Below are positions 13,023-62,681 of a stretch of 64,000 bases of DNA, in pieces. The stretch is from Escherichia phage BP32, in sequence record OR906198.1; one strand, given 5' to 3'. Below the pieces are notes generated by a model that had not been told where the DNA came from, ran no database searches, and saw only the letters and a list, made by a program, of their open reading frames with translations. How positions within the stretch are numbered: position 1 is the stretch's first letter; each line of letters begins with the position of its first letter. Position numbers and translations under genes: made by a program.

Positions 13023-13489
13023 ATTATGATAGATTTTATCCTTGCGATTTTGTGAATGGCCCTGGATGCAGGGTCGTTCTTTTCGTTACAGGTTGTTTGC
13101 ATAAATGCGAAGGGTGTTATAATAAATCAACGTGGAATGCTAGAAATGGCGTTCCATTCACTGGTGAAACACTGGAACAATTAATTGAATGTTTGAATAA
13201 TGATTATATAGAAGGATTAACTATAACTGGAGGAGACCCTCTTTATCCTGATAATCGAGATGTTGTTCATTGCATTGTTCAAACAGTAAAAAATCTTTAT
13301 CCAAATAAAAGCATTTGGTTGTGGACAGGATATAAATTTGAAGATATTAAACAACTAGAAATGCTTAAATATGTTGATGTTATTATTGATGGGAAGTATG
13401 AGAAAAATCTTCCGACCAAAAAGCTGTGGCGAGGTTCAGATAATCAGCGACTTTGGTCAAATACCGATGGGGTGTGGAAACATGATTAA
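13019..13489 (+). CDS. nrdG: anaerobic RNR activating protein (radical SAM)
   Basis: 156 aa; CLHKCEGC cluster; ATGA overlap with nrdD. Confidence 0.9.
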   Translation: MNYDRFYPCDFVNGPGCRVVLFVTGCLHKCEGCYNKSTWNARNGVPFTGETLEQLIECLNNDYIEGLTITGGDPLYPDNRDVVHCIVQTVKNLYPNKSIWLWTGYKFEDIKQLEMLKYVDVIIDGKYEKNLPTKKLWRGSDNQRLWSNTDGVWKHD

Positions 13490-14893: not shown

Positions 14894-15094
14894 ATGAATC
14901 CTGAATCTAAATTATCACAACGAATTGCCGAAGCTCGTCGTCAGTTCTTTGAAAATATGATAGCCCAAGGTATTGATGACGAAGTTTTTCTGAACTGGTT
15001 TTGGAATCACAAATATTCAAGCTGTTCAGGGGCAATATTAATATCAGCCGCAATGATGTATGAAGGCTGGAAAGGTGCCAAACAGTTTAGCTAA
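14894..15094 (+). CDS. hypothetical protein (66 aa)
   Basis: Track ORF; terminator immediately downstream. Confidence 0.55.
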   Translation: MNPESKLSQRIAEARRQFFENMIAQGIDDEVFLNWFWNHKYSSCSGAILISAAMMYEGWKGAKQFS

Positions 15095-15112
15095 GGGCTT
15101 CGGCCCTTTTTG
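15093..15112 (+). terminator. rho-independent terminator
   Basis: AAGGGC-TTCG-GCCCTT hairpin plus T-run. Confidence 0.75.
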
Positions 15113-20976: not shown

Positions 20977-22655
20977 AGAATTTTAAACTAAACCGAGTTA
21001 GGTATCAAAATATAATGTCAGTAGGTGGAAATCCTATTGACATTCAATTAGATAAGGTTCAAAAAACTCTTATTACTGGACGAAATGGTGGTGGTAAGTC
21101 TACTATGTTAGAAGCCATCACATTTGGGCTTTTTGGCAAGCCATTTCGTGATGTAAAGAAAGGTCAATTAATAAACAGCACAAATAAGAAAGAGCTTTTA
21201 GTTGAACTGTGGATGGAATATGATGAGAAAAAGTACTATATCAAAAGAGGACAAAAACCAAATGTTTTCGAAATCACCGTTAACGGTACACGTCTTAATG
21301 AATCTGCCAGCAGTAAAGATTTCCAAGCAGAATTTGAACAGCTTATCGGAATGTCATACGCCAGTTTCAAACAGATCGTCGTACTCGGCACGGCTGGATA
21401 TACCCCTTTTATGGGCCTATCCACTCCTGCAAGAAGAAAACTCGTCGAAGACCTGCTCGAGGTAGGAACATTAGCTGAAATGGATAAGCTTAATAAAGCA
21501 CTAATACGTGAATTAAATTCACAAAACCAAGTGCTTGATGTTAAAAAAGATAGTATTATCCAACAAATTAAAATATATAATGATAATGTTGAACGCCAGA
21601 AAAAATTGTCTGGTGACAATCTTACTCGTCTGCAGAATATGTATGATGATTTGGCAAAGGAAGCTAGAACGCTAAAATCGGAAATAGAAGAAGCTAATGA
21701 AAGATTAGTTAATATTGTTTTAGATGAAGACCCGACTGATGCATTTAATAAAATCGGTCAAGAAGCATTTTTAATTAAATCAAAAATTGACTCGTATAAT
21801 AAAGTCATTAATATGTATCACGAAGGTGGATTATGTCCAACCTGTTTGTCACAATTAAGTTCCGGTGATAAAGTTGTTTCTAAAATTAAAGATAAAGTTT
21901 CTGAATGCACCCATTCGTTTGAACAGCTTTCAACACATCGTGATAATTTAAAAGTTCTTGTTGATGAATACCGAGATAATATTAAAACCCAGCAGACGTT
22001 GGCGAATGATATTCGCAATAAAAAGCAATCCTTAATCACGACAGTAGATAAAGCTAAAAAGGTTAAAGCGGCTATAGAAAAAGCATCATCCGAGTTTATT
22101 GACCATGCTGATGAAATAGCACTGCTTCAAGAAGAACTTGATAAAATTGTTAAGACAAAAACTAATTTAGTAATGGAAAAATACCATAGAGGAATTTTGA
22201 CTGATATGCTCAAAGATTCTGGTATTAAAGGTGCTATTATTAAAAAGTACATTCCATTATTTAATAAGCAAATTAACCATTATCTTAAAATAATGGAAGC
22301 GGATTATGTGTTTACATTAGATGAAGAATTTAATGAGACAATTAAATCCCGTGGTCGTGAAGATTTTAGTTATGCTTCATTTAGTGAAGGTGAAAAAGCA
22401 CGAATTGATATTGCTCTTTTATTTACTTGGCGTGATATTGCTTCTATCGTATCTGGGGTTAGTATTAGTACATTAATTCTTGATGAAGTGTTTGACGGGT
22501 CATTTGATGCCGAAGGTATTAAAGGTGTAGCTAATATTATAAATTCAATGAAAAATACTAATGTTTTTATAATTTCGCATAAAGACCATGACCCGCAAGA
22601 ATATGGTCAACATCTTCAAATGAAGAAAGTTGGTCGATTTACTGTAATGGTTTAA
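20973..22655 (+). CDS. 46: recombination nuclease subunit gp46 (Rad50-like ATPase)
   Basis: 560 aa; Walker A GRNGGGKST; central coiled coil with CPTC zinc hook; matches my recall of T4 gp46. Confidence 0.9.
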   Translation: MKNFKLNRVRYQNIMSVGGNPIDIQLDKVQKTLITGRNGGGKSTMLEAITFGLFGKPFRDVKKGQLINSTNKKELLVELWMEYDEKKYYIKRGQKPNVFEITVNGTRLNESASSKDFQAEFEQLIGMSYASFKQIVVLGTAGYTPFMGLSTPARRKLVEDLLEVGTLAEMDKLNKALIRELNSQNQVLDVKKDSIIQQIKIYNDNVERQKKLSGDNLTRLQNMYDDLAKEARTLKSEIEEANERLVNIVLDEDPTDAFNKIGQEAFLIKSKIDSYNKVINMYHEGGLCPTCLSQLSSGDKVVSKIKDKVSECTHSFEQLSTHRDNLKVLVDEYRDNIKTQQTLANDIRNKKQSLITTVDKAKKVKAAIEKASSEFIDHADEIALLQEELDKIVKTKTNLVMEKYHRGILTDMLKDSGIKGAIIKKYIPLFNKQINHYLKIMEADYVFTLDEEFNETIKSRGREDFSYASFSEGEKARIDIALLFTWRDIASIVSGVSISTLILDEVFDGSFDAEGIKGVANIINSMKNTNVFIISHKDHDPQEYGQHLQMKKVGRFTVMV

Positions 22656-23353: not shown

Positions 23354-24040
23354 ATGAAACTGTCTAAAGATACTACTGCTCTGCTTAAAAATTTCGCTAC
23401 TATTAACTCTGGTATTATGCTTAAATCCGGTCAATTTATTATGACTCGCGCGGTTAATGGTACAACTTATGCGGAAGCAAATATTTCTGACACTATTGAT
23501 TTTGATGTAGCAATTTACGATTTGAACGGTTTTCTCGGTATTCTGTCTCTAGTTAATGATGATGCAGAAATTTCCCAGTCAGAAGATGGTAATATTAAAA
23601 TTGCTGATGCCCGTTCAACAATTTTTTGGCCAGCAGCCGATCCGAGTACAGTAGTTGCTCCTAATAAACCAATTCCATTCCCGGTAGCATCTGTTGTTAC
23701 TGAAATTAAAGCTGAAGACCTTCAACAGCTATTGCGTGTATCTCGTGGTCTGCAGATTGATACAATTGCTATCACAGTAAAAGAAGGTAAAATCGTAATT
23801 AACGGTTTTAATAAAGTAGAAGATTCTGCTTTGACTCGTGTTAAATATTCTTTGACTCTTGGTGATTATGATGGTGAAAATACATTTAATTTCATTATCA
23901 ATATGGCAAATATGAAAATGCAACCAGGAAATTATAAACTGCTGCTCTGGGCAAAAGGTAAACAAGGCGCTGCTAAATTTGAAGGTGAACATGCGAATTA
24001 TGTAGTAGCTCTTGAAGCTGATTCTACCCACGACTTTTAA
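23354..24040 (+). CDS. 45: sliding clamp gp45
   Basis: 228 aa; matches my recall of T4 gp45 (MKLSKDTTALLKNFATINSGIMLKSG...). Confidence 0.92.
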   Translation: MKLSKDTTALLKNFATINSGIMLKSGQFIMTRAVNGTTYAEANISDTIDFDVAIYDLNGFLGILSLVNDDAEISQSEDGNIKIADARSTIFWPAADPSTVVAPNKPIPFPVASVVTEIKAEDLQQLLRVSRGLQIDTIAITVKEGKIVINGFNKVEDSALTRVKYSLTLGDYDGENTFNFIINMANMKMQPGNYKLLLWAKGKQGAAKFEGEHANYVVALEADSTHDF

Positions 24041-24041
24041 T

Positions 24042-24066
24042 AAAGGGCTTCGGCCCTTTATAATTT
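24042..24066 (+). terminator. rho-independent terminator after gene 45
   Basis: AAAGGGC-TTCG-GCCCTTT hairpin followed by A/T-rich stretch. Confidence 0.65.
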
Positions 24067-25052: not shown

Positions 25053-25616
25053 ATGAGCTTATTTGAAGATGATATTCAATTAAACGAGCATCAAGTTGCT
25101 TGGTATTCAAAAGATTGGACAGCTGTCCAATCTGCTGCTGATTCTTTTAAAGAAAAAGTTGAAAATGAATTTTTTGAAATAATTGGAGCTATCAATAATA
25201 AAATTAAATGCTCTATTGCTCAAAAAGATTATTCAAAATACATGGTTGAGAATGCATTATCACAATTTCCGGAGTGCATGCCAGCTGTATATGCTATGAA
25301 TTTAATTGGATCAGGTTTAAGCGATGAAGCCCATTTTAATTATCTGATGGCTGCTGTTCCTCGGGGTAAAAGATATGGTAAATGGGCAAAACTGGTTGAA
25401 GATTCTACCGAAGTATTGATTATTAAGTTACTTGCTAAGCGGTATCAAGTTAATACAAATGATGCAATTAACTATAAATCAATTCTTACTAAAAATGGAA
25501 AACTTCCTTTAGTATTAAAAGAACTAAAAGGTTTAGTCACGGATGATTTTTTGAAAGAAGTGACTAAGAATGTAAAAGAACAGAAACAACTCAAAAAACT
25601 AGCATTGGAATGGTAA
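25053..25616 (+). CDS. 62: clamp loader small subunit gp62
   Basis: 187 aa; immediately downstream of 44, as in T4. Confidence 0.88.
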
Positions 25617-25988: not shown

Positions 25989-26010
25989 AAGGGGCTTCGG
26001 CCCCTTATTT
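25989..26010 (+). terminator. rho-independent terminator after regA
   Basis: AAGGGGC-TTCG-GCCCCTT hairpin followed by ATTT. Confidence 0.65.
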
Positions 26011-30476: not shown

Positions 30477-31315
30477 TTCAATTCGTAATTCCAAGCTATC
30501 AACGTGTAGGGGCAGTTTCTGCCCTTGATATGTTTCCATCTGATTATGAACCACATATTGTAGTACGTGAACATGAAGAAAAAGCTTATTATGACGCTTA
30601 CGGGTCTAGAGCTAAAATTATAACTATTCCTGATGATGTCAATGGAATTGCTGGTACTCGTAAAGCGATTACTGATATGTATGCAGGTCAGCGAATTTGG
30701 ATGATTGATGATGATACTACTATTCGTATGAGTTCAATGCGAAAGAAAGATGATCGTCGCTGCGTAGATAAAATTAATCAGTTAACTCGTGAACAATTCT
30801 ATGAATTGATTCAATACGTTGAAGATGCCATGGATTGCGGGTATTATCACGGTCATGCTCGTTTACCTATTTTTAAAATTACTTCATCTTGGGGTAATTA
30901 TCGTGAAAATTCATATGGATTCACGAATACATGGTATGACCTTGGAAAACTTACAACAGAACAAATTGGGTATGGAAAAATTGATTTATGCGAAGATATG
31001 TATGCATTTCTCAATTTAATTAATCAAGGTTATCCGCATTTGGCCTTGTTCAAATATCTGGTTGTATCCGGAAAAGCACAGGCTCCCGGTGGATGCAGCT
31101 CAATTCGTAGTAATTCTAAGCATAATAGAGCTCTTGAGCAAATCAATAAAGAGTTTCCAGAGCAAGCTCGTTGGAAAACTTCTAATATTGAAAAACGAAA
31201 ATCATTAGGTGAAGAAGACGAGCCATTAAAGGTTCTTCGCATGTGTGTTTCGCGCAAAGAAAAGTCAGAAGCGTTTCATAAGTTTAATGCTATTCATCCA
31301 ATAGCAGTTGATTAA
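30473..31315 (+). CDS. putative DNA glucosyltransferase in the beta-gt locus (not T4 beta-gt-like; possibly T2/T6 beta-alpha-gt type)
   Basis: 280 aa from ATG at 30473 (ATGA overlap with gene 42); sits where T4 has beta-gt (351 aa) but does not resemble my recall of T4 beta-gt. Confidence 0.55.
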   Translation: MIQFVIPSYQRVGAVSALDMFPSDYEPHIVVREHEEKAYYDAYGSRAKIITIPDDVNGIAGTRKAITDMYAGQRIWMIDDDTTIRMSSMRKKDDRRCVDKINQLTREQFYELIQYVEDAMDCGYYHGHARLPIFKITSSWGNYRENSYGFTNTWYDLGKLTTEQIGYGKIDLCEDMYAFLNLINQGYPHLALFKYLVVSGKAQAPGGCSSIRSNSKHNRALEQINKEFPEQARWKTSNIEKRKSLGEEDEPLKVLRMCVSRKEKSEAFHKFNAIHPIAVD

Positions 31316-31392
31316 TGCCTAAATTTATTGTGTTATAATTACCCTATCTTTAACCAGTGAGGAAAATATAATGATGCCTATGGAAAAAATGA

Positions 31393-32574
31393 ATGTCTAT
31401 TGCAGATTTAAAATCCCGTTTGATTAAAGCTTCCACTTCTAAAATGACTGCTGAACTGACTACATCTAAATTCTTTAATGAAAAGGATGTAATCCGTACA
31501 AAAATTCCAATGCTCAATATCGCTATTTCCGGCGCGATTGATGGTGGTATGCAGTCTGGTTTAACCATTTTTGCAGGTCCTTCTAAACACTTTAAATCAA
31601 ATATGTCTTTGACTATGGTTGCGGCGTATTTGAACAAATATCCTGATGCGGTTTGTCTATTTTATGATAGCGAATTTGGTATTACTCCAGCTTATTTGCG
31701 ATCCATGGGAGTTGACCCGGAACGAGTAATTCATACACCAATCCAGTCAGTTGAACAACTGAAAATTGATATGGTGAATCAGCTTGAAGCTATTGAGCGC
31801 GGTGAAAAAGTTATTGTATTCATCGACTCAATCGGTAATATGGCTTCTAAGAAAGAAACGGAAGATGCCTTGAATGAAAAATCTGTGGCAGATATGACTC
31901 GTGCTAAATCACTGAAGTCATTATTCCGTATTGTTACTCCTTATTTTAGTATTAAAAACATTCCATGTGTTGCGGTTAACCATACAATTGAAACAATTGA
32001 AATGTTTAGTAAAACCGTGATGACAGGTGGTACAGGCGTAATGTATTCGGCTGATACTGTATTCATTATCGGTAAGCGTCAGATTAAAGATGGTTCTGAT
32101 CTTCAGGGGTATCAATTTGTTCTAAATGTAGAAAAATCTCGTACCGTCAAAGAAAAAAGTAAATTCTTTATTGATGTTAAATTTGACGGTGGTATCGATC
32201 CTTATTCTGGATTGTTAGATATGGCTCTTGAATTAGGATTTGTAGTAAAACCTAAAAATGGTTGGTATGCTCGTGAATTTCTTGACGAAGAAACCGGCGA
32301 GATGATTCGCGAAGAAAAATCTTGGCGCGCAAAAGATACCAATTGCACTACATTCTGGGGTCCTTTATTTAAGCATCAACCATTCCGAGATGCTATTAAA
32401 CGTGCTTATCAGTTAGGTGCTATTGATAGTAATGAAATTGTTGAAGCTGAAGTCGACGAATTGATTAACTCAAAGGTTGAAAAATTTAAATCTCCAGAAA
32501 GTAAAAGTAAATCAGCAGCTGATTTAGAAACTGACCTAGAACAGTTAAGTGGTATGGAAGAATTTAATGAATAA
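31393..32574 (+). CDS. uvsX: RecA-like recombinase UvsX
   Basis: 393 aa; near-identical to my recall of T4 UvsX (ADLKSRLIKASTSKMTAELT ... Walker A GPSKHFKS). Confidence 0.92.
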   Translation: MSIADLKSRLIKASTSKMTAELTTSKFFNEKDVIRTKIPMLNIAISGAIDGGMQSGLTIFAGPSKHFKSNMSLTMVAAYLNKYPDAVCLFYDSEFGITPAYLRSMGVDPERVIHTPIQSVEQLKIDMVNQLEAIERGEKVIVFIDSIGNMASKKETEDALNEKSVADMTRAKSLKSLFRIVTPYFSIKNIPCVAVNHTIETIEMFSKTVMTGGTGVMYSADTVFIIGKRQIKDGSDLQGYQFVLNVEKSRTVKEKSKFFIDVKFDGGIDPYSGLLDMALELGFVVKPKNGWYAREFLDEETGEMIREEKSWRAKDTNCTTFWGPLFKHQPFRDAIKRAYQLGAIDSNEIVEAEVDELINSKVEKFKSPESKSKSAADLETDLEQLSGMEEFNE

Positions 32575-32905
32575 AGATGATTTAGATTTAGAAATTATCG
32601 ATGAATCCCCCTCTTCGGAGGGGGAAGAAGAAAGAAAAGAACGTCTTTTTAATGAATCTCTTAAGATAATTAAATCTGCCATGGAAAATGTTATCCAGGA
32701 GATTGTCATTAAACTAGAAGATGGTTCTACACACATTGTGTATGTGACAAAATTAGATTGGGTTGATGGAAAAGTCGTAATGGACTTTGCTGTTCTTGAC
32801 CAAGAAAGAAAAGCTGAGTTAGCTCCTCATGTAGAAAAATGTATTACAATGCAACTACAAGATGCATTTAATAAAAGGTCAAAGAAAAAATTTAAATTCT
32901 TTTAA
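32567..32905 (+). CDS. 40: head vertex assembly protein gp40
   Basis: 112 aa from ATG at 32567 (track start 32549 is GTG); position between uvsX and 41 as in T4; overlaps uvsX stop. Confidence 0.65.
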   Translation: MNKDDLDLEIIDESPSSEGEEERKERLFNESLKIIKSAMENVIQEIVIKLEDGSTHIVYVTKLDWVDGKVVMDFAVLDQERKAELAPHVEKCITMQLQDAFNKRSKKKFKFF

Positions 32906-32914
32906 GGAGTAAGT

Positions 32915-34342
32915 GTGGTAGAAATTATTCTTTCTCATCTCATATTTGATCAAGCTTATTTTTCAAAAGTTTGGCCATATATGGATTCAGAATATTTTGA
33001 AAGTGGTCCAGCTAAAAATACATTCAAATTAATTAAATCTCATGTTAATGAGTACCATAGCGTTCCATCTATTAATGCGTTAAATGTTGCATTAGAAAAT
33101 AGTTCATTTACTGAAACAGAATATTCTGGTGTAAAAACACTTATTTCAAAACTAACCGATTCTCCGGAAGACCACAGCTGGTTAGTAAAAGAAACAGAAA
33201 AATATGTTCAGCAAAGGGCGATGTTTAATGCTACGTCTAAAATAATTGAAATTCAAACTAATGCTGAGCTTCCTCCGGAAAAACGAAATAAGAAAATGCC
33301 AGATGTAGGTGCTATTCCTGACATCATGCGCCAAGCATTATCAATTTCATTTGATAGCTACGTTGGTCATGATTGGATGGATGACTACGAAGCACGTTGG
33401 CTATCTTATATGAATAAAGCTCGTAAGGTTCCATTTAAACTCAAAATTCTAAATAAAATTACTAAAGGCGGAGCTGAAACTGGAACACTGAACGTTTTAA
33501 TGGCTGGTGTTAACGTCGGTAAGTCATTAGGTCTGTGTTCATTAGCAGCAGATTATTTGCAGCTCGGACATAATGTTCTTTACATTTCCATGGAAATGGC
33601 AGAAGAAGTTTGTGCTAAGCGTATTGATGCTAATATGCTTGATGTTTCTCTTGATGACATTGATGATGGGCATATTTCTTACGCTGAATATAAAGGAAAA
33701 ATGGAAAAATGGCGTGAGAAATCTACTCTTGGACGTTTAATCGTTAAACAGTATCCTACTGGTGGAGCAGACGCTAATACATTTCGGTCGCTTTTAAATG
33801 AATTAAAGCTCAAGAAGAATTTTGTTCCAACAATCATTATTGTTGACTATCTAGGTATTTGTAAATCTTGCCGCATCAGAGTTTATTCAGAAAATAGTTA
33901 CACAACTGTTAAAGCTATCGCAGAAGAATTACGTGCTCTGGCTGTTGAAACCGAAACTGTTCTTTGGACTGCAGCACAGGTTGGTAAACAAGCTTGGGAT
34001 TCTTCTGATGTTAACATGAGCGATATTGCAGAATCTGCCGGTCTTCCAGCAACAGCCGATTTTATGCTTGCGGTCATTGAAACCGAGGAGTTAGCAGCTG
34101 CTGAACAACAACTCATTAAGCAAATCAAATCACGATATGGTGATAAGAATAAATGGAATAAGTTTTTGATGGGTGTTCAAAAAGGAAATCAGAAATGGGT
34201 AGAAATTGAACAAGATTCTACTCCAACTGAAGTGAACGAAGTGGCAGGTTCACAGCAGATTCAAGCTGAGCAGAATCGCTATCAAAGAAACGAATCCGCT
34301 CGAGCTCAGTTAGATGCTTTGGCAAATGAATTAAAATTTTAG
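32915..34342 (+). CDS. 41: replicative DNA helicase gp41
   Basis: 475 aa; Walker A GVNVGKS; matches my recall of T4 gp41; GTG start after AAGGAG. Confidence 0.92.
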   Translation: MVEIILSHLIFDQAYFSKVWPYMDSEYFESGPAKNTFKLIKSHVNEYHSVPSINALNVALENSSFTETEYSGVKTLISKLTDSPEDHSWLVKETEKYVQQRAMFNATSKIIEIQTNAELPPEKRNKKMPDVGAIPDIMRQALSISFDSYVGHDWMDDYEARWLSYMNKARKVPFKLKILNKITKGGAETGTLNVLMAGVNVGKSLGLCSLAADYLQLGHNVLYISMEMAEEVCAKRIDANMLDVSLDDIDDGHISYAEYKGKMEKWREKSTLGRLIVKQYPTGGADANTFRSLLNELKLKKNFVPTIIIVDYLGICKSCRIRVYSENSYTTVKAIAEELRALAVETETVLWTAAQVGKQAWDSSDVNMSDIAESAGLPATADFMLAVIETEELAAAEQQLIKQIKSRYGDKNKWNKFLMGVQKGNQKWVEIEQDSTPTEVNEVAGSQQIQAEQNRYQRNESARAQLDALANELKF

Positions 34343-55374: not shown

Positions 55375-55398
55375 AAGGGGCTTCGGCCCTTTTGTTTT
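55375..55398 (+). terminator. rho-independent terminator
   Basis: AAGGGGC-TTCG-GCCCTT hairpin followed by TTTGTTTT. Confidence 0.7.
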
Positions 55399-62408: not shown

Positions 62409-62681
62409 ATGAATAAAAACATTGATACAGTTCGTGAAATTATTACTGTTGCGTCTATTTTGATTAAATTTTCCAGAGAAGATATTGTTGAGAATCGTGC
62501 TAATTTTATTGCATTTCTGAATGAGATTGGAGTAACGCATGAAGGTAGAAAGTTAAATCAGAATTCATTCCGTAAAATTGTTTCTGAATTAACCCAAGAA
62601 GATAAGAAAACCCTCATCGACGAATTCAACGAGGGTTTTGAGGGTGTATATCGATATCTAGAGATGTATACAAACAAATAA
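62409..62681 (+). CDS. asiA: anti-sigma70 factor AsiA
   Basis: 90 aa; MNKNIDTVREIITVASILIKFSREDIVENRANFIAFL matches my recall of T4 AsiA. Confidence 0.92.
   Translation: MNKNIDTVREIITVASILIKFSREDIVENRANFIAFLNEIGVTHEGRKLNQNSFRKIVSELTQEDKKTLIDEFNEGFEGVYRYLEMYTNK

Follow-up and report, generated by a model that had tools for sequence, protein, structure and literature searches.

The compact stem-loop that lies just past the uvsX stop codon, within the 5′ part of gene 40, is probably a sense-strand mRNA element that marks where a stable uvsX transcript ends and shields this 3′ end. It was analysed in a 64,000-nt stretch of Escherichia phage BP32 DNA (the window); its structure, stability, selection as an RNA structure, conserved position and link to the uvsX end were worked out here, and the in vivo 3′ end comes from the T4 literature. 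The phage is a T2/T6-like Tequatrovirus, in which genes 42, ba-gt, uvsX, 40 and 41 follow one another on the + strand. The uvsX open reading frame (31393–32574, +) encodes a RecA-like recombinase of 393 aa, in agreement with the T4 annotation and that of the 98.9% identical relative vB_EcoM_P8 (‘recombination and repair protein UVSX’). Gene 40 (32567–32905, +) is an open reading frame of 112 aa, annotated in T4 and vB_EcoM_P8 as a head vertex assembly chaperone, and is followed by gene 41 (32915–34342, +), which starts with GTG and, by its open reading frame and the annotation of relatives, encodes the replicative helicase. In the sequence and its open reading frames, the gene 40 ATG and the uvsX stop codon overlap in ATGAATAA (32567–32574, +), leaving no intergenic room, and so the hairpin stands ∼30 nt downstream, in gene 40.

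The hairpin occupies 32606–32625 on the + strand, where the DNA letters TCCCCCTC-TTCG-GAGGGGGA correspond to the RNA UCCCCCUC-UUCG-GAGGGGGA, i.e. an 8-bp stem capped by a C(UUCG)G tetraloop, as indicated by the sequence, the folds and the identity with T4. The UUCG loop (32614–32617, +) is closed by the pair C32613-G32618, and the stem is composed of six G-C and two U-A pairs, with the outermost U-A formed by 32606 and 32625. A preliminary description of this DNA had given CCCCCTC-TTCG-GAGGGGG, which was confirmed at 32607–32613, 32614–32617 and 32618–32624; the 7-bp stem that it named does pair but is not purely G/C, consisting of six G-C pairs and one U-A pair, and an additional U-A extends it to 8 bp. 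Its location past the uvsX stop (TAA, 32572–32574) was right as well, with the count of 33 nt corrected to 32 nt for the 7-bp stem or 31 intervening nt for the 8-bp stem, and the placing in the first 20 codons of gene 40 agrees with codons 14–20 (TCC CCC TCT TCG GAG GGG GAA; 32606–32626, +), which are translated as SPSSEGE. A 26-nt fold yielded −16.7 kcal/mol and 87% of the ensemble, and the 20-nt core yielded −15.9 kcal/mol, by far the strongest compact stem-loop of 32400–33000, the runner-up reaching −11.2 with a long loop. No T-run was found 3′ of the hairpin, where the letters are AGAAGAAAGA, and a terminator scan of the sequence did not call it, consistent with the earlier remark that it is not a classical terminator; an Rfam search of 32500–32700 at E≤1 matched no family.

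Codon choice in the stem is exceptional for the phage, in that five of its seven codons are minor ones (TCC, CCC, TCG, GAG and GGG), four of which each account for ≤6.4% of the codons used for their amino acid: CCC makes up 2.2% of Pro, GGG 6.4% of Gly, GAG 15% of Glu, and TCG and TCC 5.4% of Ser each. The SPSSEGE peptide is dictated by the stem, with the amino acids a by-product. When codons 1–37 of gene 40 were recoded synonymously with the phage's own codon usage, only one of 5000 versions matched the observed stem anywhere in the segment, and the same resampling in eleven other lineages returned 2–847 matches of 5000; since the stem itself has shaped the peptide, this comparison is conservative. 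The AlphaFold2 model of gp40 (mean pLDDT 81.5) has a low-confidence coil at residues 1–19 and its first long helix from residue 20, so the hairpin-encoded residues would fall into a tail or linker that tolerates arbitrary sequence. The long gp40 forms have an acidic D-L-x-x-L-D/E-x-F motif in common, N-terminal to the hairpin-encoded part, which argues that the N-terminal extension of gp40 is genuinely coding.

UUCG hairpins are a general feature of this DNA. CTTCGG occurs 35 times in the 64-kb window versus 12.4 expected, a three-fold enrichment, and of the strong UUCG hairpins (stem of at least 6 bp), 12 are on the + strand and one is on the − strand. All of the ten other + strand hairpins that were checked are intergenic and lie 0–59 nt past the stop of a + strand open reading frame, about half of them with a T-run, so that the gene 40 hairpin is the sole in-gene member of the strong + strand set. 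Sites of UUCG hairpins in the window include 2081–2102, 15093–15108, 24040–24061, 25989–26006 and 55375–55392, and most are of the AAGGGC-UUCG-GCCCUU type. A strong hairpin on the − strand, AAAACCCUCGUUGAAUUCGUCGAUGAGGGUUUU (−18.0 kcal/mol, 62607–62639), is located within a + strand open frame.

A comparison of about 75 uvsX-40 junctions, taken from annotated phage records and IMG/VR contigs and anchored on the conserved gp40 motif A-M-x-x-V-x-Q-E, revealed that the stem has been replaced repeatedly at a constant place. As gp40 is too divergent for a single all-clade alignment, four sub-alignments were used instead, and a MAFFT alignment of the bare 20-nt hairpins was discarded, because it matched G-runs by sequence and not by structure. 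In nearly every lineage a G/C-rich hairpin ends 27–75 nt before the gp40 anchor, and it exceeds every other compact hairpin of the locus in stability in 23 of 26 representative loci (1–3.3 kb each). At least eight distinct stem sequences, some with reversed polarity, were found at the equivalent place in other Tevenvirinae genera. The T4-type hairpin, that of the window included, is UCCCCCUC-UUCG-GAGGGGGA; Mosigvirus has UCCCCUUC-UUCG-GAAGGGGA, a synonymous double change, with a UUUG loop (Ser to Leu) in one contig, and Karamvirus has CCCCCUC-UCAG-GAGGGGG or the same stem with a UAAG loop. Klebsiella phages carry either UCUCCCUC-GGAA-GAGGGAGA or CUCCCCUU-GAAG-AAGGGGAG, the latter offset by 1 nt in the reading frame. 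The polarity is reversed in Gaprivervirus, GAGGGAGC-UAAG-GCUCCUUC, and in Dhakavirus and Kanagawavirus, GAGGGUC-CUAGU-GACCCUC, where a GAGGGCC/GGCCCUC variant was reached via a G-U intermediate with an Asp-to-Gly change, and a loop variant turns Pro-Ser into His-Tyr. Roskildevirus has CCUCCCC-UUCG-GGGGAGG and Tegunavirus GAGGCUCC-GAAA-GGAGCUUC.

Loops among these relatives thus range over UUCG, UUUG, UCAG, UAAG, GGAA, GAAG, GAAA and CUAGU while the stems remain paired, and the encoded peptides (SPSSEGE, TPSQEGE, SPSEEGD, APLEEGE, AEGAKAPS, EGPSDPR, SSPSGEA and EAPKGAS) share only those features that the stems impose. Whether relatives would conserve the stem or merely the amino acids had been set as a check by the preliminary description, and it is the stem that they keep, not the peptide. 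The hairpin is therefore selected as an RNA structure, with sequence and peptide free to change. Formal covariation inside the closest clade (T4, Mosig, Karam and Klebsiella types) is modest: 88.5% paired, two pairs have double changes, and 12 of 500 shuffles equalled this count. The weakness arises because the C-run can pair with the G-run in several registers, giving a slid stem, and the weight of the argument accordingly falls on the stem replacement between clades, together with the ranking within each locus and the synonymous resampling. G-U pairs occur in several stems and would be A-C mismatches on the opposite strand, and these pairs, together with UUCG and GNRA loops on the + strand only, point to an RNA rather than a DNA element. 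In one contig (L010, IMGVR_UViG_2974573174_000001, about 1500–1520) the hairpin has lost one C from its C-run relative to the near-identical L008 and L009, shifting the gene 40 frame, which is probably a homopolymer sequencing error.

The position of the hairpin relative to the genes differs between two forms of gene 40. In long-gp40 phages gene 40 starts 99–123 nt ahead of the anchor, with its start codon overlapping the uvsX stop, and contains the hairpin, which in all of them begins 38–70 nt past the start codon. In short-gp40 phages gene 40 starts 39–51 nt ahead of the anchor, and the hairpin stands in the intergenic space between uvsX and gene 40; it ends 52–55 nt before the anchor in the L059–L066 group, as in the T4 type, and 61–75 nt before it in JC221, AP1 and Krischvirus. 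The intergenic hairpins include GGGGGC-loop-GCCCCC and UAUGGGGC-UUCG-GCCCCAUA in the L059–L066 group, AAAGGGGC-UACGU-GCCCCUUU-UUCAU in Krischvirus and GGGGC-GUAAU-GCCCC-UUUUUU in JC221. Krischvirus KFS-EC provides a natural experiment, in that a homing endonuclease gene stands between uvsX and gene 40, and the hairpin is found directly past the uvsX stop, with none at gene 40. In that locus (L078, Escherichia virus KFS-EC, 500–1300, − strand) the endonuclease gene starts ∼12 nt past the U-run of the hairpin.

Almost all hairpin-bearing loci have uvsX directly upstream, and the hairpin is weak or absent in two Acinetobacter-phage loci without uvsX upstream. AP1 and L070, which are large, Aeromonas-type, T4-like phages, have a hairpin before gene 40 with a different upstream gene, so that the link could be to whatever gene precedes gene 40, or to gene 40 itself. 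Judged from these sequences, the association of the hairpin with uvsX is strong but not exclusive.

In T4, an in vivo RNA 3′ end directly downstream of a stem-loop, within the 358 bp 5′ of gene 41, is reported by Hinton's group (Hinton 1989, J Biol Chem 264:14432 and 14440, as cited and redrawn by Kim et al. 2025, PMC12152347). The 358-bp region (‘41 5′UR’), which Kim et al. used as a reporter leader, covers both the end of uvsX, with its stop codon, and the beginning of gene 40 (PMC12152347). We found the identical 18-nt core in T4 (NC_000866.4) at 22330–22347, within gene 40 (22049–22393) and within the 358-bp region, and a search of that region in the window yielded it as the sole strong stem-loop, by which the gene 40 hairpin is inferred to be the published one. 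It is thus almost certainly the stem-loop described in T4 as the end of the uvsX transcript. The suggestion that the hairpin serves as a 3′ stabiliser or processing site for uvsX mRNA gains support from this 3′ end (PMC12152347) in a phage with the identical hairpin. According to the same paper, rho mutants have more RNA that stops at this site, the gene 41 mRNA level depends on RNA running past the hairpin, and GoF(D25Y) restores RNA reaching into gene 41, acting by RNA stabilisation (PMC12152347). In the current view of Hinton's group, T4 3′ ends of this sort belong to stable RNA, and the effects of GoF(D25Y) and Rop are post-transcriptional; Patterson-West et al. is cited among the already-known T4 work. 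A literature search found no report pairing uvsX with UUCG, or uvsX and gene 40 with a hairpin. The element and its 3′ end are already described in T4 (1989), and as a discovery the hairpin is therefore minor.

The 3′ end would be made by exonuclease blocking rather than by termination, which would result in differential expression of the genes on either side. Transcripts from upstream promoters would traverse uvsX into genes 40 and 41, and in some of them an end would arise further downstream, through Rho where gene 40 RNA is poorly translated or through cleavage by an endonuclease. These RNAs would then be trimmed in the 3′-to-5′ direction by exonucleases of the host (PNPase, RNase II and RNase R) until the C(UUCG)G stem-loop halts the enzymes, leaving a complete, translatable uvsX message. 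The remaining transcripts would read through and supply genes 40 and 41, because a hairpin without a U-tract is at best a weak terminator. In this way the supply of the abundant recombinase might become independent of that of gp40 and gp41, of which less is required. Placed ∼30 nt past the overlapping codons, the hairpin would also stand just outside the ribosome-binding region of gene 40, which would be kept unstructured.

A partial terminator or pause site, i.e. an attenuator that stops or pauses some of the polymerases, thereby reducing the transcription that reaches genes 40 and 41, is an unlikely reading with some evidence behind it. A T-run follows the hairpin in several of the intergenic copies of short-gp40 phages and gives them a classical look, as in JC221 (the six U of the hairpin above) and Krischvirus (GCCCCUUUUUCAU), and the increase in RNA ending at the T4 site in rho mutants (PMC12152347) would fit. 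Against it, a T-run directly after the stem is absent in about half of the intergenic orthologues and in all in-gene copies; here the letters are AGAAGAAAGA and the terminator scan is silent, and Hinton's group reads the T4 3′ ends as those of stable RNA with post-transcriptional effects of GoF(D25Y) and Rop. A classical intrinsic terminator was rejected, as the G/C-rich stem-loop is present and the U-tract (≥4–5 U within ∼8 nt) is not.

Translational control is less probable again. The hairpin at codons 14–20 would slow ribosomes that have just initiated and thereby limit the yield of a head-assembly protein from early and middle transcripts, which would suit a late-function gene in a replication and recombination operon, and the distance of 38–70 nt from the gene 40 start in all long-gp40 phages is just beyond the initiation footprint. 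However, the hairpin is upstream of the gene 40 start in short-gp40 phages and separated from gene 40 by a whole gene in KFS-EC, an 8-bp stem is easily unwound by an elongating ribosome, and the ten other strong UUCG hairpins of the window are all post-stop and intergenic. The option of modulated gene 40 translation, raised in the preliminary description, has accordingly become less likely, the hairpin lying outside gene 40 in short-gp40 phages and with uvsX in KFS-EC.

We consider it quite improbable that the hairpin is a 5′-end protector, generated by an endonuclease cut in the AU-rich GAUUUAGAUUUAGAAAUUAUCGAUGAA just upstream and shielding the gene 41 mRNA from RNase E, in the manner of the 5′ stem-loops of T4 gene 32 and E. 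coli ompA mRNAs. The 358-nt region does confer GoF(D25Y)-dependent stabilisation on a downstream reporter RNA (PMC12152347), and a 5′ CUUCGG hairpin is reported to stabilise T4 gene 32 mRNA (PMC8948821). Yet what is described beside the stem-loop is a 3′ end, not a 5′ end (PMC12152347), and in KFS-EC the hairpin has remained next to uvsX, a long way from genes 40 and 41. That the palindrome arose by chance, or that it acts in the DNA alone (as a cruciform, a recombination signal or a PeSL-type shuffling signal) and has no function in RNA, is largely refuted and hardly credible: the complementary strand folds too (−15.0 versus −15.9 on the sense strand), but synonymous resampling matched the stem once in 5000, relatives show compensatory changes and G-U pairs, UUCG hairpins are strand-biased 12:1 in the window, and a promoter-like site at 32500–32700 and a late-promoter box nearby are absent.

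Three further identities were tried and rejected. For a PeSL (promoter-early stem-loop) cassette, no promoter-like site was found on the + strand at ∼32000–32900 and no late-promoter box near it. For a recoding signal, of which T4 gene 60 is the frameshift/bypass hairpin example, the upstream AUUAUCGAUGAA has no X XXY YYZ motif, no other + strand open reading frame of ≥40 aa overlaps gene 40, and gp40 is in frame in all relatives. A RegB site is suggested by GGAG at the loop-stem junction here, but GGAG is missing in Mosigvirus (UUCGGAAGGGG) and is therefore not a conserved feature.

With a message-end hairpin for uvsX as the preferred reading, its place inside the next gene may reflect a wider T4-type design rule, on which we hold the balance even: where stop and start codons overlap, the message-end hairpin would be written into the first 10–25 codons of the downstream gene, ∼30 nt past the stop, with the RNA constraining the protein. 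In vB_EcoM_P8 (L079, 1–40651), five of the six in-gene hairpins with ΔG ≤−12 lie 32–58 nt past a gene start, although the first 90 nt of genes hold only about 17% of the coding bases, and three of these five near-start hairpins begin 30–31 nt past an overlapping upstream stop, at nrdD/nrdG, gene 42/ba-gt and uvsX/40. Where two genes abut, the second may thus regularly house a message-end hairpin near its 5′ end.

The other hairpins of this kind were located in the window as follows. The nrdG hairpin, GAAUGGCCCUG-GAUG-CAGGGUCGUUC (−17.5 kcal/mol, window 13054–13079, nrdG codons 12–21), starts 31 nt past the nrdD stop (about 13022), which overlaps the nrdG start; it is kept in T4-, Karam- and Klebsiella-type phages, with a compensatory change of GGCCCUG/CAGGGUC to GGUCCUG/CAGGACC (Val to Thr), and RB43-like phages have a different nrdG hairpin at +7 to +9 with −16 to −18 kcal/mol. 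The ba-gt hairpin, UAGGGGCAG-UUU-CUGCCCUUG (−12.0 kcal/mol, window 30507–30527, codons 12–18), starts 30 nt past the gene 42 stop (30476), which overlaps the start of the ba-glucosyltransferase gene, and is called by a terminator-like scan. Gene 62, for the small subunit of the clamp loader, contains a perfect palindromic hairpin, AGAUUGGAC-AGCU-GUCCAAUCU (−11.9 to −12.8 kcal/mol, window 25112–25133, codons about 20–27), situated 59 nt past the gene 44 stop.

If the design rule is true, an ancestral intergenic terminator or stabiliser of uvsX would have been overprinted by the N-terminal extension of gp40, or the extension would have been lost later in some lineages, and under either history the hairpin persisted in both forms of gene 40. 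The gene 40 hairpin is a clean natural case of RNA structure overriding protein sequence, the gp40 linker being whatever the stem encodes. It also bears on the old T4 problem of the failure of gene 41 mRNA in rho(nusD) hosts and its rescue by goF mutations; the comparison shows that the sampled Tevenvirinae genera have kept the stem-loop found at this RNA end, and that it travels with uvsX. Annotators and codon-optimisers are warned that the message-end signal of one phage gene can lie within the 5′ end of the gene that follows. The comparative findings added here are that stems have been replaced between genera, that the hairpin may be intergenic or in-gene and that a homing endonuclease gene has served as a natural experiment, with a +30 rule as a possibility; no new kind of element is involved, and the addition to a known one is modest.

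Compared with known systems, the hairpin resembles intrinsic terminators in being a G/C-rich stem-loop at a gene end, with a U-run in some orthologues, and differs from them in having no U-tract here. The REP sequences of E. coli malE-malF and the hairpins of Rhodobacter puf block 3′ exonucleases, so that the upstream segment outlives the downstream one and mRNA levels differ along the operon; like them, the gene 40 hairpin is a stable hairpin after an upstream cistron, whereas they stand in untranslated spacers and it is translated. The C(UUCG)G hairpins of T4 are said to be unusually stable thermodynamically and to block reverse transcriptase. Tuerk et al. 1988 (PNAS 85:1364; cited through PMC8948821) is the early source on UUCG hairpins of T4 mRNAs, and with these the hairpin shares the C-G-closed UUCG loop, the G/C stem and the transcribed strand; it follows a stop codon by 31 nt but lies, with its C-run/G-run stem, inside the next coding region, the ten others of the window being intergenic and of the AAGGGC-UUCG-GCCCUU form. 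The nearest counterpart is the T4 uvsX-40-41 stem-loop, with the same genes, the same position, an identical 18-nt core and no difference of substance; the phages themselves differ in that the segA homing endonuclease gene, present in T4 between b-gt and uvsX, is absent here (window 31316–31392), and that gp40 is two residues shorter, 112 aa versus the 114 aa of T4 (DLDLDL).
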